Below are positions 13,780 to 64,000 of a DNA stretch of 64,000 nt, one piece after another. The stretch is taken from NCBI GenBank assembly GCA_040954595.2, contig CM082584.2, positions 2,573,344 to 2,637,343 of the forward strand. Reading direction: 5' to 3'. The translations under genes and the position numbers were made by a program. The notes under the pieces are model-generated. The model was not told the DNA's origin. It did not search any database and saw only the letters and a program-made list of their open reading frames with translations. Numbering within the stretch: the first letter of the stretch is position 1; every line of letters starts with the position of its first letter. The stretch is from Balanoglossus misakiensis. Taxonomy: Eukaryota > Animalia > Hemichordata.

Positions 13780-14612
13780 TTGCCCACCATAACGATGTAA
13801 ATGGCCATCATAATGAAATGAAAGACCATCATAACGATGTAAATGGCCACCAGGACGACGTAGAGGGCGACCACCACTGTGTCAATGCACATCATCATAA
13901 AGTAAATAGCATCATTACAGCGTGAATAGGCTTCATCACGAAGTAAATGACCTTCATAATTATGTGAATGGACATCATAACGATGCGAATAAACATCACA
14001 ACGAGGTAAATGGACATCATAATGATGTAAATGGCCATCATCATAAAGTATTTGACCTTCACAATTATGTGAACGGACATCATAACGATGCGAATAAACA
14101 TCACAACGAGGTAAATGGACATCATAATGATGTAAATGGCCATCATCATAAAGTATTTGACCTTCATAATTATGTGAATGGACATCATAACGATGCAAAT
14201 AAACATCACCACGAGGTAAATGGACATCATAATGATGTAAATGGCCATCATCATAAAGTATTTGACCTTCATAATTATGTGAATGGACATCATAACGATG
14301 CAAATAAACATCACCACGAGGTAAATGGACATCATAATGATGTAAATGGCCATCATCATAAAGTATTTGACCCTCATAATTATGTGAATGGACATCATAA
14401 CGATGCAAATAAACATCACCACGAGGTAAATGGACATCATAATGATGTAAATGGCCTTCATCATAAAGTATTTGACCCTCATAATTATGTGAATGGACAT
14501 CATAACGATGCAAATAAACATCACCACGAGGTGAATGGACATCATAACGATGTAAATGGACATCACCACGAGGTGAATAGACATCATAATGATGTAAATG
14601 GCCATCATCATA
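13780..14612. repeat. Right subterminal array: 105-bp higher-order repeat of five 21-bp units, inverted relative to the left array
   Basis: CATCATCATAAAGTATTTGA recurs every 105 bp; the subunits are reverse complements of the left 21-mer. Confidence 0.93.
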
Positions 14613-14739
14613 AAGTAAAGGGGCGTCAAGAAATATAAATGGTCATTATAATGATGCATATGGGTATCATGATAGTGTCAATGTACATCATAGGGTGGGG
14701 GAAGGCTCCCTAAGACAGTCATGGCTTTCCATAGTTGGT

Positions 14740-27400: not shown

Positions 27401-27887
27401 TTATCATTTCTTGGAACCAGGTCATACAAAGTGCATTTGTGATGCTTGTTTCGGTAAGATTCGGCAAGTGTATCGTAGAAGTGATGTTGACACAGTTCAG
27501 CAGCTGGCAGACATTGTGTCAAAAAGTTCACGAATAAACAATGTGAAATGTTATGGCAGTCGGAATTCTGATCCCAACTTTCAATGGTTTGAGTGGGATT
27601 CATTTTTTTCTTCATTTCTCAAACCATTGAAGGGAATTCGTGTTTATCATCATTTTAGATTCACCAAGAATGATCCTGGTGCTGTATATGTTAGAAAATT
27701 AGTCACAGATGATGAAATCCGTATAGATCTGCTCAAAAGAAATGCTACTTGGCCTCCATCACCACATATAAAACCCTCTGTATTGCCTGCTGGAGGAATG
27801 AGTTTAGCCAGATGGAGAGAGTTACAGAAGGAAATTGTTCCATTTGTCAGACAGCCATTTAGACATGCATTTTGCCCTGAAGAGTAA
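24401..27887 (+). pseudogene. Sola DDD transposase, three exons, one premature stop
   Basis: Exons 24401-24971, 25419-25525, 26574-27887; motifs PRTDVCAKC, HYTFDFAQ, HADNCGGQNKN, GHTKCICDACFG; in-frame TAA at 27384-27386. Confidence 0.85.
25771..26090. mobile_element. Second bipartite inverted-repeat element
   Basis: TTATAACACACCA..TGGTGTGTTATAA followed by ACACATGATGACTGAC..GTCAGTCATCATGTGT; shares GTGATTCG..CGTCACGTGA with 19112-19550. Confidence 0.5.
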
Positions 27888-38000: not shown

Positions 38001-38572
38001 TGTCATTAGCTGCAGTTTGTAAACTCAACATGACAATTTCTTAGTTGTCACTTTCTCATAATTGTAATTGACTCACTTTATTTGCATGTGTCTCCATCCT
38101 GTGAAGCTGACATGACATCATGTTCCTTAGAGTGATTTAATTTGTAATTAACCATTACATACACTTCAAATAGGTCAGTATCTGCAGGATGGTCTTGTAC
38201 TGTATTTGGGTAATTCACTTTCTGTTATCTCATGCTAGATCTATGTCACAGATTCCATTCATTTATCTTTAGTTGTGTCACCTGTTGGTAGCTGTTTCTG
38301 CAATCACCATCTCCTCGTTGTACAGCCTGGTTATTGAGAAGACAGTAATGGTGGAGGGTGGTTTGGTGTATTGGCTTTGATTTCTCTGCAGGGCTTATAA
38401 CAGTATGTGTGTACGGAACCTTTTCCTTGCACACACACATTACGTTACTCAGTTAAATTTCTCAGACATTGCAACAAGTTCCATGGAAATACTGCCATCG
38501 TTTGCCATACTAATCAGAAATTGATATACTGACGTCACAATGGTCTGCTTCAGAGATGTTGATGTCATCATC

Positions 38573-38965
38573 TTAAGATGTAAGATGTAGATTAGCCATG
38601 TCACCTTCAACATCATGATGATCAGCTGACACACCAAGTTTTCGGAACATCTCATGTATTTCTTCTCTGGCAGCGTAGACATCACAACTTTCTTGCTCAA
38701 AAAATTTAACCAGGTTGGAAAAATTGCTCTTACAGAATTTCTTATCTGCAGTTGGCTGTTGGCCTGCACGTTGTTGTCCTCCACAGCCCTTGGACCAAAC
38801 AGATAAAGCATGTTGTGTTGGGGATTGAATCAATGCACTGTATTGCCATGAATCCACCTCCATGCGAGGGATCCCCATCAAGTCTGCCATAGCCCTGTAG
38901 TCATTGCCGGATAAACGGATGATATCCATGATATTAGAAAATATCTTGAGGGCATCCTTCAGCAT
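38573..38965 (-). CDS. Death-domain-like C-terminal segment of the ROCO gene
   Basis: GNDYRAMADLMGIP..SPTQHALSVW pattern, in frame with the upstream COR ORF across one TGA. Confidence 0.7.
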   Translation of the reverse strand: MLKDALKIFSNIMDIIRLSGNDYRAMADLMGIPRMEVDSWQYSALIQSPTQHALSVWSKGCGGQQRAGQQPTADKKFCKSNFSNLVKFFEQESCDVYAAREEIHEMFRKLGVSADHHDVEGDMANLHLTS

Positions 38966-38995
38966 CCACTTGACATCACTTTCATATCCACTGTG

Positions 38996-39832
38996 TCAGA
39001 GGATGGTTGTATCATACCCATCACAAAGAAAGTCAGTAGCTGCTTCTGAAATCACCATCTCCTCGTTGTACACCTTCTCATTCCTCTCTTCTGCTTCCCG
39101 AATTTGCTTCAATGTATAGAATGTGACATCTTCAGGGTTGCGATGGATTCGAAGAGAATCTGAACTCAACACGTGGATGTCAAGTCTTGTACCAGGACAG
39201 CAGATCTCTAACACTTCATAGACAATATCAGTTATTGTCTCTAATAATTTGTAGCATTCGCCGATTTCCTCTTCTTTCTCTGCTCTAACACAAACATGGA
39301 TAGCTCTCCAACCTTTTGTCATATACACCAAGCCTTCTGCATTGTGACACACTTTGATGCCATTTTTCCATATACCACTTGTCCGTCGGTTGATCTTTCG
39401 GAAATGGCGTTCTATTCGAGCGTTAAGTCGGGGGGAAAATCCTGGCGAGAAACTATCAGCATCATCTCTGCATTGGAACCGTCTACCATAGTAAATCTTC
39501 TTAGTAGCATCCTGTTTCCACTGATTTGCAGGCATATCTGTGTCCAACAACTCAGGTATTACATACCCAGTTACAGTATTGGATTCAGAAATGACCTCGT
39601 AGAGAAGGTCAAACTCTTTGAGAAGATTTATCAGCAAATCAATATCTGCCAGACCATGGAAAACTTCCTCAATTTCGCTTCTCATATGTAAGGACTTCCG
39701 CGGCAAGCGGTTTGCAAACTGCTCAAATATTTCAGGAGCCAGCATGGGACCGAATATTCTAGAACATAACCATTGGGGATCAAGAACAATGACGTCATCT
39801 GAATCTGGTAGGGTACTCTCGATTTGGAACAT
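38996..39832 (-). CDS. COR-domain exon of the ROCO gene
   Basis: DDVIVLDPQWLCSRIFG, YVIPELL, YYGRRFQC, FSPGFSPRL, IWKNG; acceptor AG at 39833-39834. Confidence 0.85.
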   Translation of the reverse strand: MFQIESTLPDSDDVIVLDPQWLCSRIFGPMLAPEIFEQFANRLPRKSLHMRSEIEEVFHGLADIDLLINLLKEFDLLYEVISESNTVTGYVIPELLDTDMPANQWKQDATKKIYYGRRFQCRDDADSFSPGFSPRLNARIERHFRKINRRTSGIWKNGIKVCHNAEGLVYMTKGWRAIHVCVRAEKEEEIGECYKLLETITDIVYEVLEICCPGTRLDIHVLSSDSLRIHRNPEDVTFYTLKQIREAEERNEKVYNEEMVISEAATDFLCDGYDTTIL

Positions 39833-40221
39833 CTGTGAATAAACAATGGGGAAAAATACTTATGTTTTGAGACATTTATTCAAATGAAATTGTGCATATA
39901 TCTTAGTGACACACATACCAGTATGTAGATGTGTGCATGGCTGATCATACATAGGGAAACCGCGAAACCCAGGCCAAGTCTAGCCTTGCCTGGCCAAACC
40001 ATCTCGGCTATAGTGATCGAAAAAAAAACTCATCAACGCCACAATATTGCCACTGGTGATTTAGGAACAATGTCAGGGCTATACCCACACTAGTGACACA
40101 CATGGACCACAAAAACATGTTTATAGCAGAGGGCCTTTTCTGGGTTTTTTTTCTCAGTCTTGAATCCCTGTCTAGATCCTCAGCAAAAGGCTCTGTCAAG
40201 CCTTTCACCCCCAGATCCCTC

Positions 40222-43200: not shown

Positions 43201-43500
43201 GTCACTTGGTGAAGTTTTTAGACGCAATATGTACAGTTTTAAGTGTAGACTCGAAAATTCTTCTAATGTTTTACTTGATGCGATCTGTTCATCAGATAGA
43301 GCGACTGACAGCATATTTTTCAAACATTGGCGAAAGCAATTGTATATCATGTAATTTTGCAGAGTTTTTTTGTGTGTGTGTGTCTCAGTTTCAGATTTTC
43401 CAGAGTATTTTCATTAGTGTTTTTTTTTCTTCTCTCTTTTGGGTATATGGACTTTTTTTAAAGTCTTAAATAAAGTATTATTATTATTATTATTATTATT
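40222..43500 (+). mobile_element. 5'-truncated non-LTR retrotransposon (RTE group, Proto2-like), ORF2 frameshifted
   Basis: ORF1 remnant (LFVSRL); endonuclease SFNCRS, LQEHW, GRPYGG, GDWNA, WIDH, SDH; RT NYRPIAL, FLDASKAFDRV, GVRQGGVLSP, YADD; AATAAA and (TAT)n tail at 43469-43500. Antisense in a ROCO intron. Clade call is tentative. Confidence 0.9.
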
Positions 43501-45148
43501 AAGGGTTAAATTTGTATGACACTAATCATGATCAAACAAAGAGTGCACTTAACGGTTGACACAAGCACACCCCCTGTCAACAAATTTTCCAGCGTTATTT
43601 CTGGTTTCTGTATTAGTACTTGCTTTTCACATCCCATGGTTTATATGTTTAAGTCAATGATGCCCTCTATTTTTGATGAACCCTGGCATTGATAGGTTTT
43701 AAAGAATTTCTAGAAAACTTTCAGAACTCCTGTTGGTCTTTGGAAAGGTTTCATCAGTAATTGTTCTGTGATAAACATAATTGCAGTACTGTACTTTCTC
43801 CAAACTTTGCGAGAACATTTTCTTGTAGTATGACTTCATACTGTAAAACAGGTTCTTTTCGCGACAGGAAATTTTCGCGATATCAAAAGAAGCAACTGTT
43901 ATGCATGGATTAATTTTGGCTTTCTCGTATTTCACTAACTGCATTGTTATCTAAGAAAAAAAACATTTTATGCGACTTTTGTATTTTCACATTTTTGGGG
44001 GCTCTCGCATATTTCATGAAAATTTATTGCTCGCGAAATAACCTGTTTTACAGTATCCTCCATGGATTTCTTAACCTACTGATCAAGTGGGGTAATGTCT
44101 TCAGCAACGATTTCTGTAATAAACTTACCTCCCCAAGGTAGTGAAGGTATCTCGTAGCTTTCTTTAGAAACTCTTCATCAATGAAACGATCCAACTCTTT
44201 CACTCTTTCTATATATGTTTTCCATTTGATGACCGGGAAACTGCTCACAATCCATTTGCTTCTTCCATCAAGTATCTTAGCACACAACTTTGGTATGTAT
44301 TCTTCTCTCTGTAACATTAACACAGCGACATATACCAGGTTCATGTCCAGACAGGGTAAAATTCAAAACATTTCATAGACACTATTTGCCAATAGTAAAC
44401 ACAGAGCATTAATCCTTTAAGTCGCCTTGTGTACACACACACAAGCAATGGGTTGCGGAGAGGTGTTAATCCTTACACTGGCTCAGGTCTGACCAAAGCC
44501 GTCTCAAATCTGAGACGTTTCAGGACCACTTAAACCATTCACACATGATAATTTACGCCAGTATTTCATCTGAGATGTTTCAAAAACGTCTTAAACCCCG
44601 GTGCGGAAAGTCCTGGGGTTCGGATTAACGTGTGTTTGTATAGTTGTTTATTTGGGAGTGGTCGTCGTGCATAATAACTGTGTAATTGCTCTCATGTACA
44701 CAGAAAATAATTGAACACTTCACACTTCCACGCGATTGACAACTGTTTGAATGGCGTGGTTATTGTTTCCCAGGGACGCTTCTGAAAAGCACTGAAACCA
44801 GATTTCTCCCAAAATCATCGTTGTTTCATAAGCTCGTGTACTTTTTCGTCGATAACTTTATGTTGTGTGTGTTTATAAAGCCAACTACTGTCGTTGTATG
44901 GTGTAATTCTTTATGCTTGGACCTGTTTGGGCCGATTTTCAAAGAGCCAAGATCGTTGGTGTTGTCTGTTGTCAGTCAAACGGCATTAAGATTCGCCACT
45001 GATTTGGGGGGTCTTTTATACCCCGCACCGGGGTTTAACGATGACCCCCATAATACTGTTGTTTGGTGAAATGAACATTCAGAAAAGCAACTCGAACAAT
45101 ACTGGCAACAGTGATATTCACCCTTTACAGACACAGCCCATTATTTAA

Positions 45149-45846
45149 AGTCTTGTTCTCACTAAAAGTTTGGACACCGGTGTTATGCCAGTGTTTACTC
45201 TCTGCAAACACAGGGGATTAGCCCACAGAATCTCCTTGCGTCCACACACTAAACTTTTGGCCACTGTTTTGAAATAAACACTGTCTAAATGGCCATGTTT
45301 AGCAACACGGCAACTAACAAAATTGAGGATGTCGAGGACATTACAGCAACATGTTGCAGTTTATATACCTGCATATACGTTCTAGACGACTTTGTGACAG
45401 TTTTGATAATGTTTAGAAGTAAATGAATGTTAATCCATAAATGGAAAATGCCTCGGCTTTTTGGTGATCGAGAGAACCTTCTGAAAGTTGGTAGCAGACT
45501 GAAGTGTTGCAGACCTGGCAAACTGCGAATGGTTTGAAAACCACTCGCATCCAGTGTGATTGACTTAACAATGGAAACTGACCAAAGACAATGGGCTATA
45601 CCTAATAAACATACCCAAAAGTCACTGCAGGGTGGCGCTTTTGAACGGTGTTTGTTTATCTTTGCGTTCTCACTGATTATTTGCGTCGGAGCGCTGGCCC
45701 AGCACTGGCCCTGACCCACCACCCATCGCTGTCGCAAATTAACACCGGCCCAACACCGGTGTAAAGCGTTCTCACTTGTTTTTTTCCGTCGGTGTCAAAT
45801 CTACACCGATGTAGCACCAGTGTAAACGTGCCAGTGAGAACGCCCT
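45149..45846 (-). mobile_element. 698-bp MITE (Harbinger-like), copy 2
   Basis: Reverse-complement copy of 21299-21996. Confidence 0.85.
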
Positions 45847-47010
45847 TTTAGACAGTTCTGATACCCGGTAAGTCAAAAGTATACAACCTTGACTTATTTC
45901 CCACTGATAAGAGTTCAGTTATTACTATCTGATAGTTGGCTTTCTTGGACTCTATGCATTACATGAGAGTATTAAGGTGATGTAAAGCATGCCTTTGTCA
46001 AATATGGCCCTAATGAATTAACATGTTCAATCCAGTCACACATTGCAAAATATCTATAAAACCATACCTTTGCACTTCGTAGACATTCACGCAATCTGTG
46101 CATATCATTATGCTGCGAGTTGTGACAATTTAGTATGAATGTCTCATCAAGAATATTCAGGTATTTGCCAAAGGTCTTCTGAGCTGTCTGGAGTATTTCC
46201 CTCATCACCAATTCAGCTATCAAGAAAAAAGTAATGATCTCTTGATAGATTTTTATTTACAAAGTATGGACATATACACAGAAGAGGCCACTTTGGTGCT
46301 GTTTTGTATTTTTTGAAAGCATCCGGTGAAATTCTACATCAATCACACTATCTGAATAGGTAAAATGTTGAATAGTAATGAGATCTCCTTTTGCATAGGT
46401 TCAGATGTAGTATGGGTGTCCCTTTCGAACAGAACAGCCAAGAATCAGCAAAGGTAAAGACAGCGCCCAACACTACATCTGGTTTTAATCAGATTGAGTG
46501 TACTCCCACACAAGGCTCCCAAATGTGTGAATACCCTCGCTCTTGTCACCTTTTATCTAAACATGTACTGAACATACCTTCTTTCTTGTGTTCAGCTTTC
46601 AACAAATCAGCCTTGCTTCCAATCAATATCACTTTTGGTTTACTCCCACCCTCATCCATATCTTGTGGTATGATTGCCTTAAGGAATGCAAGCCATGATG
46701 TCACCTATTAAAGAAAGACATGAAGAAGAATATAAAGTCATCAATCATATTATATTCAATCAGTCCCTAAATCTGGATAAAAACAAAAAGAGATAAATGT
46801 TTCACAAATATATATACTGTGCCATTCATCTTTACTTTAATTTCATTCACAATATTGCACCACCTAATTCACTGATGCACTGCTTAGTAATAAAAAAAAT
46901 ATTGTAATATATGCACTGTGCCCTTTCTGAGTTTCATCTTTACCTTTATTCCATAATTGCCCAAGATATTAATATCACTTATCATCAGTAACAAAAAAAC
47001 AACGACCCAC

Positions 47011-47295
47011 CTCTTGTCTCTGCTGTTGCATAAGTTTTCTTGGTGTCCAAACTACATCCTGCTTGTCCTCAGCCATTTTGAAGACCAATAAAACCACTGC
47101 ATTCTCGACTCTTAGGAACATATTATGTGTGACATAGTATTCTGTTTGTCCTGCAAAGTCCCACACACTGAACTTGCCAATCTTGGGTATGGATAATGTG
47201 GCTACATCTATGGCGGGTGTTGGTGTGTACTGCATGTTCCCTGGTAAAGGTGCTTTCTCTTCTGACCGTCGAGTCAATTTTGCTTGCACAAAGTT
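47011..47295 (-). CDS. Roc GTPase exon (switch I and G3)
   Basis: YTPTPAIDV..GKFSVWDFAGQTEYYVTHNMFL; phase-0 acceptor. Confidence 0.85.
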
Positions 47296-47534
47296 CTGCA
47301 TTGTAATATATGAACATAAGTGATGATTTTCTCACAATTTAGAGGTTGTAAACTTATAAACGGCAAGCGAGAGTATTTGATTCCGGATATAAGACCTCCC
47401 AGGTGAAACTTAGCATATTTGGCGGGAAATAATCACTGAGCGAGGTGTACATAGGATCAGCACGGCGAATGTTTTCAGCGGGGGGGGGGGGGGGGGGTCA
47501 TCATATTTTGGGTCTGTCAAAGGTTGGTATTTAC

Positions 47535-50500
47535 CTTGTTTTGTATGTTAGCATCAGCTTTGTGTTCCAATAACAATCTGACAAGGCATTCACCACCAAC
47601 CCTCCTTGCTGCATAATGCAAAGGAGTGTCTCCATCCTGTAAGTAATGAAGGAGGAGCATGAGAATAATGTCACAAAAATTGAAATATTATGTGAAATTT
47701 CCATAAACAAACAAACAAACAAATAAATGAATAAATATATCCGCATTGATAGAATAAACTTGCAGAAGTCAGGTTGGTATTTACCTTGTTTTGTATTGTC
47801 ACATCAGCTTTGTGTTCCAATAACAATCTGACAAGGCCTTCACCACCAACCCTCCTTGCTGCATAATGCATACAGTGTACATAGGATCAGCACGGCGAAT
47901 GTTTTCAGCGGGGGGGGGGGGGTCATCATATTTTGGGTCTGTCAAAGGGGGGGTCATCATTTTTTGGTCCAGGGTGAAGGGGGGGTCGGCCTGATTTTGA
48001 AAATCGATGACCCAAACTTGCCCCCCCCCCCCAGCCGTAAAAACAGTCCCTAACGTGTATTCGATGCGAGCTGGAAGTCAAATGAACGGTTACTCACGTT
48101 GGAACACCCATTCAAAATATGCAAATTAGGAAAAGACGCATATGCATTCTTTTCATCCCCAGAGACACACGCAGGAAATCAAGCAAGTGCGGCCACTAGC
48201 TGGAAGAGCTGAATTCAATGCACTGCCTTGTGATGTTCATGATACAGGGGGGTGATGATCAATGAATAGAACAACAATTGATTGATTAACAAAGAAAGAA
48301 AGAAAGGAATGCAAATCGTTTCCACACCTGCCTGTATAACACCTGACCCGACAGAGTGAGCAGTTTTGATTCAAAGGACAATGACAAAATTATATGACAT
48401 ATGCTGCAAAATGCAAAGGGGTCACCTTTCTGTAAGTCATGAAGGAAGAGCATGAGAACAATGTCACAAAAATTGAAATGAAAAGTGTTTTCTTATACAA
48501 ACAAACAAACAAACAAACAAACAAACAAACAAACAAACAAATAAATGAATAAATATATCCGCATTGATAGAATAAACCTGCAGAAGTCAGGTTGGTATTT
48601 ACCTTGTTTTGTATGTTAGCATCAGCTTTGTGTTCCAATAACAATCTGACAAGGCCTTCACCATCATCCCTCCTTGCTGCATCATGCAAAGGGGTGTCTC
48701 CTGTCTGTAAGTAATGAAGGAGGAGCATGAGAATAATGTCACAAAATTGAAATGTAATGTGAAATTTCCTTAAACAAAAAAAAACAACAAAAACATCTTT
48801 CAATACTTTCAGAATTAACCTGCAGAAGTCAGGTTGGTATTTACCTTGTTTTGTATGGTCACATCAGCTTTGTGTTCCAATAACAATCTGACATGGCCTT
48901 CACCACCATCCCTCCTTGCTGCATCATGCGAAGGAGTGTCTCCATCCTGTAAGTAATGAAGGAGGAGCATGAGAATAATGTCACAAAAATTGAAATCTAA
49001 TGTGAAATTTCCTTAAACAAACAAACAAACAAATAAATGAATAAATATATCCGCATTGATAGAATAAATCTGCTGAAGTCAGGTTGGTATTTACCTTGTT
49101 TTGTATGTTAGCATCAGCTTTGTGTTCCAATAACAATCTGACAAGGCCTTCACCACCATCCCTCCTTGCTGCATCATGCGAAGGGGTGTCTCCATCCTGT
49201 AAGTAATGAAGGAGGAGCATGAGAATAATGTCACAAAAATTGAAATCTAATGTGAAATTTCCTTAAACAAACAAACAAACAAACAAATAAATGAATAAAT
49301 ATATCCGCAGTGATAGAATAAACCTGCTGAAGTCAGGTTGGTATTTACCTTGTTTTGTATGTTAGCATCAGCTTTGTGTTCCAATAACAATCTGACAAGG
49401 CATTCACCACCAACCCTCCTTGCTGCATAATGCAAAGGAGTGTCTCCATCCTGTAAGTAATGAAGGAGGAGCATGAGAATAATGTCACAAAAATTGAAAT
49501 ATTATGTGAAATTTCCATAAACAAACAAACAAACAAATAAATGAATAAATATATCCGCATTGATAGAATAAACTTGCAGAAGTCAGGTTGGTATTTACCT
49601 TGTTTTGTATTGTCACATCAGCTTTGTGTTCCAATAACAATCTGACAAGGCCTTCACCACCAACCCTCCTTGCTGCATAATGCAAAGGAGTGTCTCCATC
49701 CTGTAAGTAATAAAGGAGGAGCATGAGAATAATGTCACAAAAATTGAAATATAATGTGAAATTTCCTTAAACAAAAACAAAACAAAAAAATATTTCAATA
49801 CTTTCAGAATTAACCTGCAGAAGTCAGGTTGGTATTTACCTTGTTTTGTATGTTAGCATCAGCTTTGTGTTCCACTAACAATCTGACAAGGCATTCACCA
49901 CCAACCCTCCTTGCTGCATAATGCAAAGGAGTGTCTCCATCCTGTAAGTAATGAAGGAGGAGCATGAGAATAATGTCACAAAAATTGAAATATTATGTGA
50001 AATTTCCATAAACAAACAAACAAACAAATAAATGAATAAATATATCCGCATTGATAGAATAAACTTGCAGAAGTCAGGTTGGTATTTACCTTGTTTTGTA
50101 TTGTCACATCAGCTTTGTGTTCCAATAACAATCTGACAAGGCCTTCACCACCAACCCTCCTTGCTGCATAATGCAAAGGAGTGTCTCCATCCTGTAAGTA
50201 ATAAAGGAGGAGCATGAGAATAATGTCACAAAAATTGAAATATAATGTGAAATTTCCTTAAACAAAAACAAAACAAAAAAATATTTCAATACTTTCAGAA
50301 TTAACCTGCAGAAGTCAGGTTGGTATTTACCTTGTTTTGTATGTTAGCATCAGCTTTGTGTTCCACTAACAATCTGACAAGGCCTTCACCACCATCCCTC
50401 CTTGCTGCATCATGCGAAGGAGTGTCTCCATCCTATAAGTAATGAAGGAGGAGCATGAGAATAATGTCACAAAAGTTGAAATCTAATGTGAAATTTCCTT

Positions 50501-51960
50501 AAACAAACAAACATACAAATAAATGAATAAATATATCCGCATTGATAGAATAAACCTGCTGAAGTCAGGTTGGTATTTACCTTGTTTTGTATGTTAGCAT
50601 CAGCTTTGTGTTCCAATAACAATCTGACAAGGCCTTTGCCAATCCTCCTTGCTGCATAATGCAAAGGAGTGTCTCCATCCTGTAAGTAATGAAGGAGGAG
50701 CATGAGAATAATGTCACAAAAATTGAAATATAATGTGAAATTTCCGTAAACGAACAAACAAACAAATAAATGAATAAATATATCCGCACTGATAGAATAA
50801 ACCTGCAGCAGTCAGGTTGGTATTTACCTTGTTTTGTATGTAAACATCAGCTTTGTGTTCCAATAACAATCTGACATGGCCTTCATCACCATCCCTTGCT
50901 GCATAATGCAAAGGAGTGTCTCCATCCTGTAAGTAATAAAGGAGGAGCATGAGAATAATGTCACAAAAATTGAAATATAATGTGAAATTTCCTTAAACAA
51001 AAAAAAAAAAAAAAATATTTCAATACTTTCAGAATTAACCTGCAGAAGTCAGGTTGGTATTTACCTTGTTTTGTATGGTCACATCAGCTTTGTGTTACAA
51101 TAACAATCTGACAAGGCCTTCACCACCATCCCTCCTTGCTGCATCATGCAAAGGAGTGTCTCCCTCCTGTAAGTAATGAAGGAGGAGCATGAGAATAATG
51201 TTACAAAAATTGAAATCTAATGTGAAATTTCCTTAAACAAACAAACAAACAAACAAACAAATAAATGAATAAATATATCCGCATCAATAGAATAAACCTG
51301 CAGAAGTCAGGTTGGTATTTACCTTGTTTCGTATGTTAGCATCAGCTTTGTGTTCCAATAACAATCTGACACGGCCTTCATCACGAAACCTTGCTGCATA
51401 ATGCAAAAGGGTGTCTCCATCCTGTAAGTAATGAAGGAGGAGCATGAGAATAATGTCACAAAAATAGAAATCTAATGTGAAATTTCCTTAAACAAACAAA
51501 CAAATAAATGAATAAATATCTCCGCATTGATAGAATTAACCTGCAGAAGTCAGGTTGGTCTTTACCTTGTTTTGTATGTTAGCATCAGCTTTGTGTTCCA
51601 ATAACAATCTGACAAGGCCTTTGCCAACCCTCCTTGCTGCATAATGCAAAGGGGTGTCTCCTGTCTGTAAGTAATGAAGGAGGAGCATGAGAATAATGTC
51701 ACAAAATTGAAATGTAATGTGAAATTTCCTTAACCAAACAAACAAACAAACAAACAAATAGACAAACACACAATAAAATGAATAAATATATCCGCATTGA
51801 TAGAATTAACCTGCAGAAGTCAAGTTGGTATTTACCTCGTTTTGTATGGTCACATCAGCTTTGTGTTCCAATAACAATCTGACAAGGCCTTCACCACCAT
51901 CCCTCCTTGCTGCATAATGCAAAGGGGTGTCTCCTGTCTGTAAGTAATGAAGGAGGAGCA
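47535..51960 (-). repeat. Tandem array of ~240-270-bp units, each one ankyrin-repeat exon plus intron
   Basis: Complete 99/102-nt phase-0 exons with low coordinates 47535, 48603, 48845, 49095, 49349, 49599, 49840, 50090, 50331, 50581, 50828, 51065, 51323, 51566, 51836; partial copies at 47785 and ~48400-48429. Each is flanked by TTAC/TAG acceptor and GTAAA donor. Confidence 0.95.
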
Positions 51961-51970
51961 TGAGAATAAT

Positions 51971-54900
51971 AGCGCCATATTGGAGTGGACGTGTCAGCAT
52001 CGTCTCCTGCCTGCTCGTATAACTTTTTCAAAATATCCCGTTAAAACTTCAAGATTCACAGTAACTCCAAGTCTAAGCGAAGGGTAATATCAAACTACAA
52101 AGATGGGTATCAGTTTGCAACTTTGGAGAGGACGCATCGGCGGGTTTTCACAACCAAATTCCTGGAAGTGTGTCGAAAGTCATAGCGGTGACGTGTCGCA
52201 ACGGACAAGGTATTCACGTTGGCCACCTGTTCTTGACTATCTGTGCAGAACTACAGCAACAGTTTTCATTATTGAACTGACGTTGTTGGTTGGTTCTCTG
52301 CTATCTAAAATTGAAATGGACAACCTAGCCAGCTTTTCAACCAATGAAGATATCAACAGTTTTATGGAATACGAACATGTCATGGTTTTTGAACAGCGTA
52401 TGGTTACCAATGCCGTTGCAACAGCAGGTCTGCAAGGCAACACAGTATTCGTACCCCTTCTTTTGACTTTGAGTGGAGACATTGAATTAAACCCAGGACA
52501 AAAGCGGTTAAGCAGGTAAAATTGACAGAATGTACTGGTACTCAAAGAGAACTCAGGTCAAATTCGACTCCAACAGTGAGCGAACCGGAGGCCCCAAAAG
52601 AAACCAGTCTAGCCGATGTCATACGCGAAATTCGAGAACTCAAAGTCGACCTGAAAACACAGATTGATACTTCGGTTCACGATGTTCATGATAGAGTTGA
52701 CGAGTTGAAGGATGAAGTGAATCGTTTGCGGAGCGAACTGAGAGAAAATTACCAGGAAACTGCTCGATTAGCGGAAGAGAACAAGTATTTAAAAGACAAT
52801 ATAAGCACGGTGTTAAGGGAACTCGACGATGTCAAAGGTAGGATGAAACGGGATAATCTGTTATTCCACAATATCGAACAGTCGCCTAATGAAACTTGGG
52901 ACGATACCGAAAACAAAGTGAAGACATTTTTGTCGGAGAAACTAGACCTAGATGGTAGCAGCTTTGAATTCGACGGGGTTCATCGTCTATCTAATGCGAA
53001 AGGTCATCCCCAGCCTATTGTTGCCAAATTCACACGCTTTAAACAACGGGAACAAGTCTTACAGAAAGCACGAGGGAGTCTCAAGAACACAAACTTTCGG
53101 GTTTCCGAAGACTTTACTCCAAGGGTACGGGAGACTAGGAGGAAGCTTGGACAGTTTCTACAGAAAGCAAGAGAAGAAGGTAAACGCGCATTTTTGAATT
53201 ATGACAAGCTAAAGATCGATGGAACTCTATATATTTTCGACGATTCGCTGAATGACATTCGCCCTTTCAACAGAAATCATCGCGATCGCTAGGGGTCAGG
53301 CCGAAGCCACAATACACGGTATGATGCAGACACGAGTAACACCAGCTTATATTCTGAACATGGCAAAGATACTGACACTCAGTTTATTTGCTGGAACATT
53401 AATGGTTTAAAATCTAAATTTCTTGACGGCGGATTTCATGTCTTTTTTGACAAAATCGGATTTTGGTGTAATTTGCCTGACGGAAACGTGGGCTTGTACT
53501 TCAGATCAGTTTTCTATTCCCAATTACACTTCTATCAACCTTGCTAGAAAAAAGATTATGCATTTAGGAAGATTTTCAGGGGGTATTTCAGTTTTTGTCA
53601 AGAACTCAATATGCAAAAGCTTCCAACAGCTGCCAAGTTTGTCCGAGGATTTTCTATGGGTAAAGCTGTTTCTCAAAGATAACTTTCAAATTAATTCATT
53701 GTTACTTCTCACCAGAAGGGTCATCTCAATATGCAAATCCAGAAATGTTCCAATTGTTAGAAAATGAATTAGCAAAATATTCAACCATTCACGAAGGCTC
53801 GCCTGTAATTTTATGCGGCGATTTTAATGCCCGCACAGGCTGTGTCTCTGATACTATCGAATGGGATTCCAGGTGTTTGCCAGTGGATGACAGTGACGTA
53901 GATCCACCTTTGCCAATACGAGAGTCAAGAGATTCATCAGTTAATGATTATGGTAAACGGTTACTGGATTTTTGTCACAGCACAAATTTTAAAATTGTTA
54001 ATGGGAGATTTTTTAAGAATCATGGAAGTGGTGAGTATACATTTCTTTCCAAAAGCGGGGGCAGTGTGATAGATTAGCTTTTGTTATCTTGTCATGATCT
54101 TCACCTGTTAACAGATATGTATATTGATTCTAGGGTTGAATCAGACCACCAACCACTGATATTTAAATTAGACCTGTCTCACCAAGAGAGAACAAGTCTT
54201 ACGTCTGATTATAACAATGTTAATAACTCTTCTATATTTACTTGTAAATGGGATAATAAGTTACTCAATGTAGTTAACAACTTTTGGAACAGCGCATCTT
54301 CAAACTCACATGTGTCTGAAATCAATGGGCTTCTCTCTTGAGGGGAAATAGACAATGCTGCGCTTTGTCTGAGGGATACAATTTGGAACTCACTTTCATG
54401 TATGAAAACAGGTGGCATGGGTAGACGAGTGAAAAAGACGAATAATTGGTGGGATGATGAATGCCGTGAATTTAAAGCCAAAGTTAAGAATGTCCTTAGA
54501 AACCATAAATATAGTCCCACCCCTATTTCATTCGGTGTCTATAAATCCATCCAGCGAGATTATCACAACCTGCTGAAAGAAAAGAAAAGGAACTATGATA
54601 TATTGAAACAACGTAATTTTGCCGAAGCCGCCAAGGACCCGAATTCTAAGCGTTTTTGGTCCATGTTGAGACCTTATACCCCGGGTCCCCCTGATTCAAT
54701 TACTGCTAAGGAATGGGTTGATTACTTTTCTGTTTTATTTAATACTCCTGGCAATTTACACGACGATTTCCAAGATTTTTATGTGGAAGTCGACGAGTTT
54801 GTAAACAATTCGTTTTCATTTCATGATCCTGTATATACGGATGTAGGCACAGACGTTGATACCAGTGTTCTGGATAGTGAAATATCACTTGAAGAAATAG

Positions 54901-57563
54901 ATTGTGCAATTAATAACCTGAAATTGGGTAAAGCTGCAGGCGTTGATGGCATACCTGCGGATTTCTTTAAGTATTCATGCCAAGAATTTAGATTAATTTT
55001 GTATAACTTTTTCAATAGTGTTCTCAACTCAGGTATTTTCCCGGAAGAGTGGGTTAAAGGTATGATTATCCCTCTTTTTAAGAAAGGGGTACATGACTCT
55101 GTGTGTAACTATAGGGGAATAACTCTTCTTCCTATTATTGGTAAGATTTTTTGCAATGTGATGTTCAAGCGTTTAAATGACTTTGTTGAACTTAATTCGC
55201 CAATCACTGAAGCTCAGGCTGGTTTTAGGAAGAACCGCAGCACAATTGACAACATTTTTATTTTGGATACTACAATATGGAAATACTTATCCAAACACAA
55301 ATCACGTTTTTATGGTGCATTCATTGATTTCGAGAAAGCTTTCGATAGAATTGATCACAACGCCTTGTTTTATAAATTACTGAAACGTGAAATGAAGAGT
55401 AAAATGCTTATAGTGTTAAAATCTATGTACAAATCGGTGAAATCATGTGTACGAACACCACATGGGATTACAAACTTTTTCCAGTGTACTTATGGTGTGC
55501 AACAAGGATCTGTTTTGTCCCCATTATTATTTAATCTTTTCATCGATGATCTTGGCGAAACCCTCAAAAATGGCATGTTTAATGGTGTTTATGTAGGAAT
55601 TTTGAAGCTCTTGTATCTTTGCTTTGCTGACGATTTAACAATTGTAAGTAATTCAGTAATTGGACTACAAAGACAGCTTAAAAGCCCCAGTATTTCTCGT
55701 GTGCATCCATTTTTCATCATCGAAAAAAGCCCGTTTTTCCAGTACATCAATCATGGAATACTATATAATGAAGATGTAAGAAAGGTTTGGGCAATTGTAG
55801 CTACATGCAAGCCGAAAATATCGCCCGTAACACTTGAAATGATGCGCGGGTTTGTTTACAACGGAAATGTTGTACATGTCGATCAGCAAACGTGCCACTT
55901 TGACATGTTGATGGTCAGACCATTTTCGGATTTGATCTGGTTCCATCGACTGATTTCTCCCATAAAGTTATCTTCGCAAAATTTCGCCGAATTAGTGCGC
56001 ATTTCTTCGCTGAGTCGCTTGATTTGGGGCGACCAAACCTCTTCCGCATAGATTCACATTTGAGTGCGCATGCGCACTAGTCACGTGTGTCAACATTAGC
56101 CTGACTCACGTGACTTTCTGTCCGGACAGAAAGTCATTCTTCACTCGTTATATTGTAAATTGTATGAGTTTATGAGCAGAGCTGGGGATGATGACTGTTC
56201 GATTCAGTATCAATTATCATCTACTTTTAGAAATTATAGATGCCGTTTCAAACAAAATTTTGCCCCTACGAGAAATACTGTGGCTTTAACAAATTGTGTA
56301 TCTATTGTAACAGATGGAAACTAAAAGTTAATGGGTCCAAGACAAAAATTTTTGTCTTCAGGAGTGGGGGAAGGTTGAAAAATTACGAGAGATGGACATT
56401 GAATGGGGTCCAGGTTCAGACAGTACCGTATTTTAACTACCTCGGTCTGACCTTGTTTTGTTCAGGAATCTGGACAAAGGCTCAAGAAATCCTTGCCAAA
56501 CAAGGGAAAAAAGCTATGTACAATATTAAAAGATATCTGAGTCAGTTTAAAAACATAGACATAGAGCTAGCTCTACGAATTTTCGACTGCAAAATTCTTC
56601 CAATACTTATGTACGGTAGTGAAGTATGGGGTTTTCATGAGGGTAAGGATGTTGAAAAAATTCAAATAGATTTCTGTAAATATATACCATGGTTAGTTCA
56701 AGGTCAACCAATTTAGCTGTCTTGGGTGAACTGGGCAGACAATCTTTGAAAACGCTTCGTCTACCACGCATTATTAAATACTGGGTAAAATTAATCCATA
56801 GCGAAAATTATAGATATACTAAGCAATGTTATGACTACCAACGTGAAATGGCAGACAAAGGTTATAATTGTTGGGCCAAAAAGGTCAAAGACCTTTTATT
56901 TTATTTTGGTTTTGGTATTGCCTGGGAGTCACAGGCTGTGGGAAACGAGTGTCTTTTTCTTTCAAATTTTAAACAAAGATGCCTGGATATTGGTCAGCAG
57001 GTATGGCACAGTGAATTGGTCAATTCCACTAAGATGGATTCTTATTGTCTATTTAAAAATAATTTGTCTTTTGAAAAATATTTGAATTGTGTAAATATTG
57101 AGCTATTTAGAGTCACCCTTTGTAAATTTAGAATTTCAAACCACAAACTTTTAATAGAGAGTGGCCGCTTTGAAGGGTTAACAAGAGATAACAGAATTTG
57201 TCAGTTTTGTACTTTACAGCAAGTTGAAACGGAATTTCACATTTGTCTTATTTGCCCCATCTACAAGGAATTAAGAACACGTTTTCTCTCACCATTCCAC
57301 TATCAGCAACCCTCATTGAAGAAATACTCTAGCCTGTTAAACTCTCAAAACCTCCACACCTTAGTTAATCTGGCAAAGTTTATTATAGTTTTAAGTTAAG
57401 AGATAATTTATTGCAGGACACTTGATCGCATACACGTCTATTTCTGTTTTGATGGCATTGTATCTATTATGTCAATGTAAGCCCCACTGCATGTCTGTAT
57501 ATTTATCAGTTTAATTATTGTATGAAGGCCGGTGGCCTAAGATACTGAAATAAATATATATAT
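51971..57563 (+). mobile_element. Apparently full-length non-LTR retrotransposon (RTEX-like), decayed, inserted into an ankyrin-array intron
   Basis: TSD ATAAT (51966-51970, 57564-57568); ORF1 coiled coil plus RRM-like region (52522-53292); endonuclease CWNING, CLTETW, GDFNAR, SDH; RT NYRGITLL, FIDFEKAFD, GVQQG..LSP, FADD; C-terminal RICQFC..HICLIC; AATAAA plus (TA)n tail. Confidence 0.92.
55682..56285. mobile_element. TTAA-targeting MITE (Kolobok-like) inside the LINE RT
   Basis: TTAA on both sides; TIRs AGCCCCAGTATTTCTCGT / ACGAGAAATACTGTGGCT. Removal restores GLQRQL-NKLCIYCNRWKL. Confidence 0.88.
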
Positions 57564-57714
57564 ATAATGTCACAAAATTGAAATGTAATGTGAAATTTCC
57601 TTAAACAAACAAACAAACTAACAAACAAACAAACAAATAGACAAAGACACAAACAAATGAATGAATATATCCGCATTGATAGAATTAACCTGCAGACGTC
57701 ATGTTGGTATTTAC

Positions 57715-60700
57715 CTTGTTTGGTATGGTCACATCAGCTTTGTGTTCCAATAACAATCTGACAAGGCCTTCACCACGACACCCTCTTACTGCATAATGCA
57801 AAGGGGTGTCTCCATTCTGTAAGTAATGAAGGAGGAGCATGATGAGAATGTCAAGAAAAATGAAATGTAACATGAGGTTATTTTGTTAAAATGAACGATC
57901 GAACAAACACACAAACGACAAATAATCGCAAACTCCCTTGTGGATAATATTAACCAACAGTAAATGGCATTTGAACAGAAACAGTATCGACTCTACACAC
58001 AAGATGTGTAATTCAGTTTTATACATGCATTTTAACGAGCTAAAAGAATTCTGACAAAATATCTGCCAGTTGATACAGAAAGAAAAGTTACTATAAATAA
58101 TTCACAAACAAACTCAAATTTGACAACTTGCAAAACAGATAACATTACGGATAACCAATACACCAATTTTAAACTGAACTTTATTTATGATTTTCTATCA
58201 AAAAACTGACAGTGATGTGATGTTAGTGAACATTTCCTGAATGGGACCAATTTATTTTTGCAACCTGCACAATATAGAAGAAGATTTAGCAAACAACTAC
58301 AGTGACATTTAGTAGAATTGTCAGAAGAATTTTGAATAATCACATCTCATCTCCAATATGATGACAAATTTGAGATATGTGGAGATTTATGTGGAAACAG
58401 ATCAAACATCTGAGCTAACCAAACTATGTTTATTTCCTGTAGGAGGGCATCAGACTGTTCTCAGCACAAAGTAGCCAAGCTGTGCAGACTGAACGATGTC
58501 GATCAAAGGGGAAATAACAGAGAAATTGTATGTGACAAGGGATAAATCAATCATCATTAAAATAAATTTCTACTGAGTGGTCCAACAATATCAAGTAGAG
58601 TTGTGCAATGGTGTCACTCGTTATTTGTAGAAATAGTGTTTAAATAAAAAAAACTTGAATTTCACCAAAAAAAACCATCTGAAGAAAGTTAACACTGATT
58701 CCCTTTCTCCATCGCACTGCATCAAAAAGTCTAATAACCAAAGAAAGACTTCAGTGGACACTGTGGCCAATGGGAATGTGTGGCAAACAAAATTAAATGC
58801 AATGAATGCAGTCATTCTTTTCATGTAATATAAAGAACAAACAAAATTATCAAAACTCTTCATAAGAGATAACATTGGAAGCCACAGTAGCACTAACTTT
58901 CAAGGACATTTGTGTAACCATTCCAGCCGTGCCCCACACTAAAACAGAACAGATTGGACCAGTCACACTTCCCTTAATCCTATTGTTCCCAATGTTTATC
59001 TCATCAATATATCTATTGCATGCTTTTAGCACCTTCTCTCAGGTTCTGGAACCTGGTTGGTTAAAACTTGCTGTTCTGGCCATCTTGATCACCCCCTTTG
59101 AAATGATTGGGTAAGTGACAGACAGTGATGAGAAGCTGAGGAGTGGAGCCGCACAGACCTCATGTTTTATAAGCTTGAGCTATTTCCAAGAGAAAGAGCA
59201 ATCCAAATGCTGCCGCTGTGTTGCTCAGAATGATGAAAAAAATCATCCGACTGAACAATTTAATGTTAAAATGTAATATATTTTATAAAGTTTATAAAAG
59301 GTAAATTGGGTTGGCACTGTGCTATTAGGCCTGAAGTACAAGCTAAAACTGGCCGACTCCTCTCGGCACCGTCAACAAGCACCCCTGCCCCCAGCAAGTC
59401 CCCAACTTGACATGTGTGATGTGACCATGGCTGCGCATCCGTCCTTCGGTCCTAAAAGTTGCCAAACAAACCCCTTTTTAAAACGGCCCCAATCAGAGCC
59501 GCAATGAAAACAAGTTCTTCTGGTAAAGTCTTACTCAAAATGTTGCTATGACTATAATTCTGACACAAAACTGAGCATGAGTGTGGACTGATTGCATAAA
59601 CATATTTTGAAAGTACTTCCTGTAAAAAAGGGAGGAGGCTCCACAAACCAGACTATTTTTGTTTATGTACATGATATACTTGTGCGAGGGTTGTCAACTT
59701 GATAGCCATTCTCAAGATTTACAATCATTATAAGAGTGTACGTATACAAGAAAAGTAAATTCCTGAATATTAAAGGGACAAAGTCTCTCTCTCTCTCGCT
59801 TCCCTTTTTCCATTAATTATGTTTGATACAAGACACTGTTTATGTTATTCTACATGTGTATGTAGTGAATTAACGTTCGACCACACACAAATATGCAAAG
59901 GAGAATTTATTAATAAGCCATACCCACCAAAATCTTATCAGATCTAGAACTTATCATAACAATGCTACATACAAAATTTCATATCATTGGATTCAATTTC
60001 TCTCAAGATATGAGTGGAACAAAATCTGTCTACAGAAGGACAGACAGAAATCGCTGTGCCAATAATGAGATTATTATTTAAACCACAAAAGATTGACGAT
60101 AAACAATGCAATAAACAACAACATCCTTATGTTCAACAAGACAGTTTTTGGCAGATGCTGGAGACAATCCCCCTTTCTCATAACTCCAAATTGCTCACAG
60201 TGGAGATCAAATGTCTCAGATATAGGAGAGACAATCACATCACCATAATGAATCAATACTTGCCTGTGTCTGGACAACACCTGGCCGAGAGGAAGTAGTT
60301 TTGATTCAAAGGACAGTGACAAATTATATGGCACCTCCTTATGATGAATTGTATTAGGTACCAGACAGGAGTTGGCAGATGCTGGAGGCCGACAGACAAT
60401 CACCCTATCTGATACGTTCTGTGATAGGATTGGCATGGACTGTCATCAGTCTATCTGTACAACACCTGACCAATGGGGGGAGTAGTTTTGATTCAAAGGG
60501 CAATGGACAAATATATACATTGTATCCCAGACACAATTTACTAAGAAAACTACAGAGGAAATGGCACTATTGAGAAAGCTCATACTTTTAGAATTTACCT
60601 GCAGAAGTCAGGTTGGTATTTACCTTGTTTTGTATGGTTACATCAGCTTTGTGTTCCAATAACAATCTGACACGGCCTTCACCAACATCCCTCCTTGCTG

Positions 60701-61001
60701 CAGAGTGCAAAGGGGTGTCTCCCCACTGTAAGTAATGAAGGAGGAGCATGAGAACTATGTCACAAAAATTAAACGTAATGTGTAATTTTACTTAAACAAA
60801 AAACATACAAACAAACAAACAAACAAACAAACAAACAAAAAATGAATGAATAAATCATTCCATACTGATAGATTAACCTGCAGAAGTCAAGTTGGTATTT
60901 ACCTGGGTTTGTATGGTAACATCAGCTTTGTGTTCCAATAACAATCTGACACAGCCTTCACCACCAAACCCTGCTGCATCATTCAAAGGGGTGACTCCAT
61001 C
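57715..61001 (-). repeat. Three further ankyrin cassette exons upstream of the LINE
   Basis: Exons 57715-57816 (NGDTPLHYAVRGCRGEG), 60624-60725 (WGDTPLHSAARRDVGEG), 60903-61001 (DGVTPLNDAAGFGGEG) with the same flanking intron sequence as the main array. Confidence 0.9.
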
Positions 61002-64000
61002 CTGTAAGTAATGAAGGAGAAGCATGGGAACAATGTCACAAAAATTGAAATGTAATATGAGGTTTCTTTAAACAAACAAACAAACAAACAAACCTATAAA
61101 TAAATAAACAAATATCAAAAGTATCAGCCATATTGCAAAAAACAAGCAAGAATGGCATACTGACTGATTTGAAAGGATAATGCACAGTCCTTCTACACAC
61201 AAAATGAAAATTGCCGACTGTTAAAATGAATACAGATCAAAGAATGACGGTGAAGAATCTCAATTGATTCTAACAGCGAGGAAAACGCTTTGACTGGTCA
61301 TATAGTTTTTAACATTGGATGTTTTAGACTCCATAGCTTAACTAAGGATGGAGGGGATCTGGAAGATTTAAAAAAAGATTGCCAGCAAAATTTCAGAGAT
61401 GGCTTGAAAAAAAATAAAAATTTGTTAACTTTGGTGAAACACAAAAAAATGCATCAAAATTTACTTTCTGGAACATATTTATTCATTCGGAACAAATGTG
61501 TCAAATACACTATGGTTCAACATCTTTGGCTAAATTGTAAAGATTGTTAAATTTAGAGTGCAATGTGTCCCACTGTCCTTCCTATGGCTGGATCCCAAGG
61601 GTATCATGGTTAGTAAAACTAAATCAGTATGGGTAATACTTTTTGGCCTTTCCCTCTTCTTGTTCAGGGTTAGCTTGTTTCTTCCCATTGAATTTGGATC
61701 ATGCAAAGTAATTTTGGATGAAAATAAGAGTGTTGTAATTAGGTCTTTTTCAAAGGCATTTTTTTATTATCCAATTGTGTGGCCACATTATCCATAATAA
61801 AGTGATAAGTCAGTTCACGTACCTCATCCTTCGCATTGACATCTGCACCATGGCTAATCAACATCCTGACAGCATCCAATTTACCTTTGAAGGACGCTGC
61901 ATGCAATGCTGTGGAATCATTCTGGAATAAAGACGTTTAATGTTGGAATAAAAATGACATCACAAATCTGATACTTGCAATGTGAGTCAACTGCTTGATC
62001 TTTTGATGAGGAAACTCTAGGAATTTCATCACAATGAGCTTCAGTCACTATTGTAATAATGGTTTTGATTACGATGGTGTGTTATTTCAGTAATAGACTG
62101 ATATAGATTTGATTCTGAAAGATCATAATAATAGTATTTTCTAAGGTTGAGTGACAATTCTCTATGACCAAAACACATGTACAGTAAAACCCGTCTAATC
62201 CAAAGGGACAGAAGAAATTGTTCAGTTTACAGACGTTTCTGGTTTGTAAAGGTTCTTTTAACACGTGGTTCTATGTCAAGGGGACAGGAAAATGTGTTCA
62301 TTATAGACAGTTTTCCAGATACGGCATGTTCCATTTCGACAGGTATTACTGTATGTGGTTGAACCACATTGAACCAAACTGTAGACTGATACCATGTTCA
62401 CACTAGGTAAAACTGGAACTGTTGATGAAAAAGTCTGCACTGAATTGAGATTATTTATATTTGTGGGCTAGTGTAGGTCTGTTTTTGCACAATCTAAATG
62501 TGGTGTTGTGATATCATTTTGGGAGTGTGTGGTATTTTGGAAGTTCATAGATATCTAGTTGATTCAGTGTTACTGTTGTGTGAAAAGCCAGTCACTCATA
62601 ACCATTGAAATGTTTCTGAAACGTCTCTGCTCAAATGCCGGCATAAAATATTACATGTGAACAGTTGAAGTGGTCCTGGAACATTTCAGGGGTTCAGCTA
62701 GTGCTACTACAGTAACAGCATCAGGGGTGCTATAGAAAGCGGCGTGGCAAACTGCAATGATGTATTTGCAAACAGAATAGTGCGATGGACCTTGAAAAAC
62801 ACCCCAGTTGAGAATTAGTTCTTGCCACAGAGAATTTGAAACACCATAGTTGACCCCTAAAAATACTGCTTGCAGCAGACCTCTCCGTGTCTGTAAGTTT
62901 ATCTTTGTGGAAGAATTGACATTAGGAATATCTTGTTTGCACCAAGAATCCATTTTATTTCAACAAAATTCGTTATTTTAAAAATATATTTCTATTAAAA
63001 GTTGTTACTTACCAAAAACCCAGGCTGTCTATCGTTATTTTGTTGCACGTAATTGAAATACAGTTTCACACAATTTTTTTAAGTTCCTGCATGCACCGCA
63101 TGTGAAAAATTAAATATCAAACGCTAGCCCTGAGCGATGACTCTGTATAAAACATTGGTCAATACGAACACTTACCTGTCCTGGGTATTTACCCCTTGCA
63201 TTGACATCATATCCATCAGCTATCAGCGACTGAATCTTTGCAACATCACCCTTCACTGCGGCATTGATTAGATTCTGTAACATTCAACAATCAACATTTC
63301 TTTCATCAAAATATTCTCAAAATGCAATCATAAACAGCAGTAATATAAAAGGAAAACATTGAAATCTTCATTAATGAAAAATTATGAAGCCAAAACATGA
63401 TCATGTACGCCAATTTGAATACAAAATGATGACATCATGTTGTGAGAAAACAAAGACAACACAATCACTCTTCTCCAAGACAAAGCAGCAAGATCTCCAA
63501 AGGGCAACAGGAAAACAGAAATACAAAACCGGTGCTGGCACTCTCAGGGAAAATAGACATTGCCTGTCCATAACATTTCCAGGAATTTTCAACAACAAAA
63601 AGACAATTTGGATTCACCTCCTATTGATGTGTTGGTACCCCCTGGAAATTTAATTGTCAAAGGGGCACCTGAGTGCCCTTTAAAATGATGTTACTCACAT
63701 GTTGAAGATATAACATTCCCCCTTGCCAGAGTGGAATCACCCTCAAATATTCTGGCGAAGGGGGACATATACCCCCTGCTGATACCATCCTGAATAAAAC
63801 ACTGTCTGAATATATATATATATATATATATGGAAGAAAATGAGACAAAAGCCCCCTTAGCTCCTAATTTACAAAAACTGGGACAGTTAATGCCATAATA
63901 CAAATATAAAGCAATAACAATGTTTCTAATATAAAGAACTATGGTTTAGACACCCATCCGTATTTCAAATCTCATTTGAACATTGTCATGTTATAAGATG

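Follow-up and report, generated by a model that had tools for sequence, protein, structure and literature searches.

Within a 64,000-nucleotide stretch of contig CM082584.2 of the acorn worm Balanoglossus misakiensis (the window, to which all positions refer) lies an ankyrin-ROC-COR-death-domain gene on the minus strand, in which many of the ankyrin repeats are encoded by an array of similar exons. An earlier note on this DNA had described these exons as a library of 18 cassettes and proposed that the gene encodes a variable intracellular receptor. In the present study we have analysed the architecture of the gene, the exchange and variation among its exons, and its relatives.

The array and the gene that carries it

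A script search located 18 complete units on the minus strand, from 61001-60903 through 47636-47535, each consisting of one ankyrin repeat on a phase-0 exon of 99 or 102 nucleotides (nt) bounded by AG and GT, as the note had stated; the single array exon checked against Pfam matched Ank with E=3e-7. The last unit, U18, together with the partial exon behind it (47523-47870), is however a 100% copy of 49337-49684. Since U18 is an exact copy of U14 placed at a rearranged junction, the array proper comprises 17 exons and 16 distinct sequences. The core exons are 83-100% identical (mean 91%), and U11-U12 and U13-U14 form a 491-nt dimer duplication with a single difference between the copies. The introns, previously called near-identical, are certainly related, but pairwise similarity among the 13 short ones is 71-100% (mean 87% over 78 pairs), with two types represented, while the three remaining introns measure 966, 2807 and 5777 nt. 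The longest of these, between U03 and U04, contains a long interspersed nuclear element (LINE) of about 5.6 kb that splits the array, with a short ATAAT-like target duplication; it carries a nested insertion at 55678-56285, and contigs show the joint 55677-56286. Every residue and segment variant listed in the note was recovered in the units (D/T/E/N/W; Y/D/S; RRVGG, RRDGG, RRDDG, RRIGK, RRVGK, RDGD, RFRD, RGCRG, RRDVG and GFGG; ANI/VTI/VYI), and the VRLLLEHKAD framework is shared, being interrupted by a TAA in U07. An exact 31-nt ankyrin-exon pattern gave 0 matches in metagenome contigs.

Downstream of the array, ROC is followed by COR, the order that defines the ROCO family. The first ROC exon (47295-47011) gives a Pfam Roc match of E=5e-8; COR-A and COR-B reach E~1e-3 to 1e-4, under the curated cut-offs, and tblastn with full-length relatives agrees. 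The exon chain from ROC to COR is in frame and all splice sites are canonical. Searching with the COR exon recovered 18 relatives among 951 candidates (16 from Ptychodera flava, one each from Glandiceps and Saccoglossus; top identity 62%), and the ROC-COR query gave 25 matches among the 7991 candidates scored (18 P. flava, 4 Saccoglossus, 1 Glandiceps, 1 Branchiostoma and 1 Amphiura). The nearest relatives are P. flava proteins named 'DAPK1-like', and we infer from these comparisons a lineage-expanded acorn-worm family of kinase-less 'DAPK1-like' ROCO genes. There is no N-terminal kinase or calmodulin-binding region in the window, but neither the start-codon exon nor the 5' end of the gene was located within these 64 kb; the relatives begin about 10 amino acids (aa) ahead of the exon at 63274, and no N-terminal kinase is visible in them.

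The C-terminal domain was approached in three ways. Pfam Death matched 5 of 8 aligned C-terminal tails (best E=5.6e-4, under the cut-off), a profile of the tails matched the MyD88 death domain with E=0.008, and an AlphaFold model consists of six helices with a mean confidence (pLDDT) of 74, its top structural matches including the death domains of FADD, Tube/Pelle and UNC5H2 (probability 0.77-0.89, all E>0.1). These tests, each weak but all concordant, support a death fold, in agreement with the earlier assignment to a ROCO-death-domain gene. An ESM Atlas search with this domain gave no usable match; a search of the PDB with the full-length alignment returned ankyrin proteins only among the 60 matches listed, and the C-terminal tails were searched instead.

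Table 1. Features of the ankyrin-ROCO locus in the window, in the order of transcription
Feature	Position	Strand	Basis or remark
N-terminal ankyrin-like exon (NLINAAVKGD...), phase 0	63176..63274	-	tblastn with P0002 and P0007 residues ~10-40; AG/GT sites
Second N-terminal ankyrin exon, 99 nt, phase 0, outside the homogenised type	61823..61921	-	Pfam Ank E=3.5e-10; AG/GT
Array exons U01 (61001-60903) and U02 (60725-60624), older divergent units	60624..61001	-	
Array exon U03, older divergent unit	57715..57816	-	
LINE: retrotransposon without long terminal repeats (non-LTR; ORF1, endonuclease, reverse transcriptase; stops and frameshifts), antisense in the U03-U04 intron	51971..57560	+	RVT_1 E=1e-29, Exo_endo_phos_2
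Core tandem array U04-U17, period ~250 nt	48603..51937	-	
In-frame TAA in U07 (exon 51166-51065)	51095..51097	-	All 17 other exons have GAA here
Remnant: beginning of an ankyrin exon, 2 nt deleted, fused to intron-2-like sequence	48329..48429	-	
Rearranged junction	47445..48030	.	Exact copy flanked by repeat ends; site where relatives have capping repeat, linker and P-loop exons
ROC exons without G1: 47295-47011 (DFAGQ), 46704-46578, 46216-46068	46068..47295	-	Pfam Roc, tblastn, in-frame AG/GT chain
First COR exon	44129..44308	-	tblastn; AG/GT
Last exon: COR-A/COR-B, premature TGA, then death-domain-like fold	38573..39832	-	Pfam, tblastn, AG/GT, tail tests

Exchange among the exons and variation on the binding face

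The mosaic combination of variants that the note had described was borne out by recombination tests. Incompatibility was found in 164 of the 528 informative site pairs, with p=0.0002-0.001 in the pairwise homoplasy index (PHI) test; the incompatible fraction is 37% within exons versus 12% in the intron flanks, and the Y and D variants of position 10 are combined with both the ANI and the VTI blocks, all four combinations being present. Unlike PHI, a Mantel test relating incompatibility to distance gave no significant correlation (r=0.04, p=0.27). The array exons have undergone unequal crossover or gene conversion. The breakpoints of the mosaics lie inside exons and thus the exchange took place in DNA; splicing cannot create such mosaics, and exon skipping is ruled out as their source.

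For the analysis of selection the repeats were numbered by the scheme used for designed ankyrin repeat proteins (DARPins), with U18 omitted as a duplicate, and the randomised positions were taken by us to be 2, 3, 5, 13, 14 and 33. Another DARPin library randomises positions 2, 3, 5, 10, 13 and 33, according to the accessible part of its description (PMC4308713). In codon site models of the 17 exons, M2a was better than M1a with twice the log-likelihood difference (2dL) at 25.6-27.5, sites 3, 10, 14, 15 and 19 being flagged, plus 30-31 on one tree (gap placement is ambiguous at positions 13-15), and the binding-face omega was 2.5-2.9. With a FastTree pipeline 2dL was 18.5, a value equalled in 0 of 35 neutral simulations (24 of them with recombination) and reached in 1 of 32 with added rate variation, that is, in 1 of 67 overall. 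Furthermore, DARPin positions account for 13 of the 35 amino-acid alleles (permutation p=0.03, or 0.017 when position 10 is included), and the units of the window show five residues at position 3, with codon changes of several nucleotides.

The variable residues include those at positions 3, 10 and 14. The focus on the binding face claimed for these exons does not hold throughout the repeat: DARPin positions 2, 5, 13 and 33 hardly vary, and variation also occurs at position 8 (L to S in 3 exons) and at 15, 19 and 30-31, the last four lying outside the DARPin set taken here. At position 19, L is replaced by R, H or C in 5 of 17 units versus 0 of 75 repeats of the relatives.

A disabled copy and its relatives

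The locus is not able to make the proposed receptor. Besides the stop in U07, a second stop (TGA, 38998-38996) in the last exon truncates the protein ahead of the death domain, and a scan of six frames found no P-loop motif (GxxxxGK[ST]) within the gene. About 100 residues present in the relatives (P0001 residues 159-258, comprising a capping repeat, a linker and GxxGxGKT) have no tblastn match in the window. The P-loop is present in 16 of the 25 named relatives; the nine others are mostly N-terminally short models, with P0005 and P0006 lacking the motif internally. With two stops and no G1/P-loop, the idea that this very copy produces a variable receptor has to be abandoned, and as judged from its sequence the locus is likely a pseudogene, a dead member of its family. 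The framework pN/pS of 0.94-0.96 and the replacements at position 19 agree with this state. Just downstream of the gene, COR coding sequence at 39036-39072 recurs as a 37-nt copy (94.6%) at 38288-38324.

We propose, with a probability of roughly 60%, that the locus is a disabled copy whose one-repeat exons DNA recombination has multiplied and mixed, and that it is part of a probably young acorn-worm family of many copies, the intact ones of which would serve as intracellular sensors. The variation at positions 3, 10 and 14 was likely inherited from functional copies, with neutral drift later.

The relatives within B. misakiensis were viewed solely through the contigs of three runs (X1, X2 and X3) of one sample. 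X1 contigs covering the ROC exons and introns have depths of 907-973 with 0-3 differences from the window, and low-depth X1 contigs on the array show 27-39 differences. This high depth with few differences hints at some 30 near-identical ROC halves, with contig depth not being a copy number and the depths in X2 being uneven. An X2 contig (record 13) tracks the window to 47445 and continues with 40 unlike letters, which suggests that the rearranged junction is absent from most copies. Contigs also join at high depth across 58729-60071 and across 59025-59549 in intron 2, pointing to related copies without these stretches.

Only X3 shows two joints in which the end of one ankyrin exon runs straight into the start of a different one, the joints in X1 and X2 lying within introns. 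X3 was read as RNA because of these exon-exon joints, the sole basis for that reading, since the run is labelled 'DNA?'. The downstream exons at the joints have Tyr and Val as their first residues and, in one case, His at position 10; these alleles are absent from the units of the window. Paralogous cassettes are thus spliced, and they add alleles at positions 3 and 10, the two clearest variable positions of the face. No exon skipping was observed among these short contigs, and X3 gave no cover of the ROC exons at 80% likeness, which is evidence neither way. Homogenised arrays are found in other members of the family, the nearest-repeat identity being 0.83-0.91 in the arrays of P0001, P0008 and P0015. 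P0015 (from Glandiceps) and P0041 are related ROCO proteins with homogenised arrays of their own, with nearest-repeat identities of 0.88 and 0.86. In P0015 repeats of two types alternate, and variation is greatest at positions 1, 5, 10, 13 and 14. The architecture, the acorn-worm family expansion and the spliced paralogous exons together fit a family of variable receptors.

The restriction to contigs of one sample, the meaning of depth and the label of X3 weigh against this proposal, and so do four results. No ROC exon was seen spliced to an ankyrin exon in the contigs, and no intact B. misakiensis paralogue was seen in those of the three runs. For the 14 core exons 2dL was 8.7, a value that 10 of 56 simulations with recombination (run on 17 sequences) also attained, and the permutation p was 0.30-0.34; the per-site signal that is significant for 17 exons is not so for the core, and without the three oldest exons the modest nonsynonymous excess on the binding face is lost. 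Finally, DARPin positions account for 0.30 of the differences in the array (core 0.25) versus 0.39 in six ROCO relatives and a median of 0.35 in ordinary ankyrin proteins, so that the share in the array does not exceed theirs. These controls were the 35 of 228 non-ROCO proteins with close repeat pairs from a search with the P0007 ankyrin region, and their share is raised slightly by a repeat-finding pattern that fixed positions 6-9; the same positions in the relatives were dropped as a control for that reason.

The last two results favour an account in which the array is a satellite-like by-product, its exon-intron units having multiplied neutrally while the family decayed, and its binding-face focus reflecting the ankyrin positions that tolerate change. 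We consider this somewhat unlikely. It agrees with pN/pS values of 1.07-1.15 over the whole exon and 0.94-0.96 in the framework, with the near absence of variation at four DARPin positions, and with damaging changes such as the stop, L8S and L19R/H. It is opposed by the site signal of the 17 exons, which exceeds 66 of 67 neutral simulations, by a gamma alpha of 0.28 in exons versus 2.4 in introns, variation being far more concentrated in the former, and by the five residues at position 3, to which the spliced contigs add two more. Helix 2 is nearly invariant as well (2 of 36 changes, p=0.0007), although no synonymous change falls there either. The evidence for selection is mixed overall, and from the sequences compared the binding-face focus appears genuine but typical of ankyrin arrays generally.

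An assembly error at the repeat could have made both the P-loop deletion and the extra U18, leaving a locus nearer to intact, which we regard as quite improbable. At the junction, 47445-47521 is the end of a G-rich repeat element; next comes a 348-nt piece 100% identical to 49337-49684 in the array, which corresponds to partial U13, an intron and U14 (U18 at 47636-47535), and then the same element end again (47875-47948). This duplicated flank is what a misassembly might leave; in addition, 47445-47521 is unbridged by any listed contig, and a high-depth contig departs at 47445. However, both stops are distant from this site, no part of the window contains the missing 100 aa, and a missing bridge proves nothing, since contigs drop rare variants. 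Natural processes also give rise to templated insertions with microhomology, here AGG at 47521.

That the locus is itself an active cassette library, yielding isoforms by exon skipping and possibly decoys without GTP binding or death domain, would agree with its canonical phase-0 splice sites, its in-frame ROC-COR chain, the position of the TGA in the last exon and the fact that skipping U07 would take out its stop, but it is very improbable given that the mosaic breakpoints are beyond the reach of splicing, that 10 of the 66 letters of the resolved X3 spliced piece depart from U18 and each joint carries alleles foreign to the window, and that the product would have neither P-loop nor death domain.

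Other features were also noticed in the window. Two tandem arrays of 21-nt period, open in several frames (for example as LPYDDGH repeats), lie at 5244-6251, directly after a gag-like open reading frame (ORF) with a zinc knuckle (3818-5188), and at 13788-14608, directly ahead of an unbroken 1008-aa reverse transcriptase-RNaseH-integrase ORF (14614-17640). At 6318-7754 (+) an unbroken 478-aa ORF, which encodes a helix-turn-helix together with an rva_4 integrase core (E=1e-77), is probably a DNA transposon. ORF fragments occupy 9075-13686 (-), with a weak SAM match at 12736-13686; the pieces downstream presumably resemble, by eye, HECT-ligase-like transposon cargo. Between the two COR exons a second non-LTR retrotransposon (~40000-43480, +; RVT_1 E=5.5e-26, several in-frame stops) occupies the intron. 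A 698-nt element occurs twice in opposite orientation (45149-45846 and 21299-21996, 96.8% identical), and a contig joint skips 45143-45846, the site of the first copy. Interrupted transposase-like ORFs at 26535-27887 and 104-2944 (+) show a weak DUF7869 match and a SAP domain.

A putative family of ankyrin-ROCO sensors

In the mechanism that we propose for the family, each unit, as a phase-0 exon, brings along the splice signals that it needs, so that unequal crossover and conversion would add, drop or blend repeats, changing their number and content without frameshift. In intact paralogues a ligand would be bound on the concave ankyrin face, ROC-COR would serve as a switch that dimerises depending on the nucleotide, and adaptors with death folds would be recruited through the death domain, roles drawn by analogy from what is established for ROCO and death-fold proteins (ankyrin structure is described in the part of PMC8229355 available to us). 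Copies would be born and lost fast, the present locus being a casualty in which the array still drifts. The spliced relatives may plausibly act as immune sensors. A further extension, in which tens of near-identical genes would hold hundreds of one-exon cassettes exchanged from locus to locus by conversion, with broken copies as silent donors and mixing or skipping perhaps specific to the individual or the cell, would amount to a natural DARPin-like immune repertoire of acorn worms; we offer it as a speculation that is unlikely as a whole.

The closest parallel is found in the brown-algal LRR-ROCO genes of Ectocarpus and Saccharina, for which exon shuffling is described (PMC3341825, PMC11378527; in this paragraph and the next, the cited works are drawn on for their accessible parts). 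In both cases a ROC-COR GTPase stands behind N-terminal repeats, one repeat is encoded per symmetric exon and the exons are shuffled, a site-model signal falls on the concave face (here in the set of 17 exons and not in the core 14), and rates of birth and death are high, in the present family presumably so. The algal repeats are however leucine-rich repeats (LRR) on phase-2 exons of 72 nt, whereas here they are ankyrin repeats on phase-0 exons of 99 or 102 nt in an animal host, with a C-terminal death domain and in a pseudogene copy; alternative splicing is shown in the algae, whereas here there are exon-exon joints only and no skipping was seen.

A second parallel is provided by the fungal NOD-like receptors (NLRs) of Podospora, with highly internally conserved ankyrin, tetratricopeptide (TPR) or WD repeats (PMC4986451, PMC13449251). 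These share near-identical ankyrin repeats in concerted evolution with a variable inner helix and hairpin, high internal identity with recombination, as in our array (core mean and PHI given above), frequent pseudogenes and a coupling to cell-death effectors. They differ in having a STAND NTPase (NACHT or NB-ARC) with C-terminal repeats, whereas here ROC-COR follows N-terminal repeats. For the fungal genes both function and polymorphism in the number of repeats have been documented, and the present work covers genes as read in one sample. The gene is thus likened to both systems and is a member of neither.

Compared with DAPK1 and the acorn-worm 'death-associated protein kinase 1-like' proteins, the gene shares the ankyrin-ROC-COR-death order, with the COR identity noted above, and its N-terminal and ROC exon boundaries correspond to those of the acorn-worm proteins. 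Those relatives, unlike DAPK1, have no N-terminal kinase. The array described here is far more homogeneous than theirs (mean repeat identity 0.80 versus 0.50 in P0007), and the locus is without their capping repeat, linker and P-loop. Expanded death-fold immune architectures are reported for hemichordates, and in the accessible part of that report the present family is not among them (PMC8195603). Our literature search, in which subscription journals were incompletely covered, returned no account of ankyrin-exon-shuffled ROCO genes in animals.

By analogy, the locus may represent an ankyrin counterpart of the brown-algal exon-shuffled ROCOs, viewed through a pseudogene and with a candidate role in immunity. 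Since this copy is a pseudogene, the value of the finding lies in its paralogues. If the proposal is true, the design known from the algal and fungal systems would have arisen independently for a third time, here in a deuterostome that lacks adaptive immunity, and the family is a candidate for diversified intracellular recognition in hemichordates.

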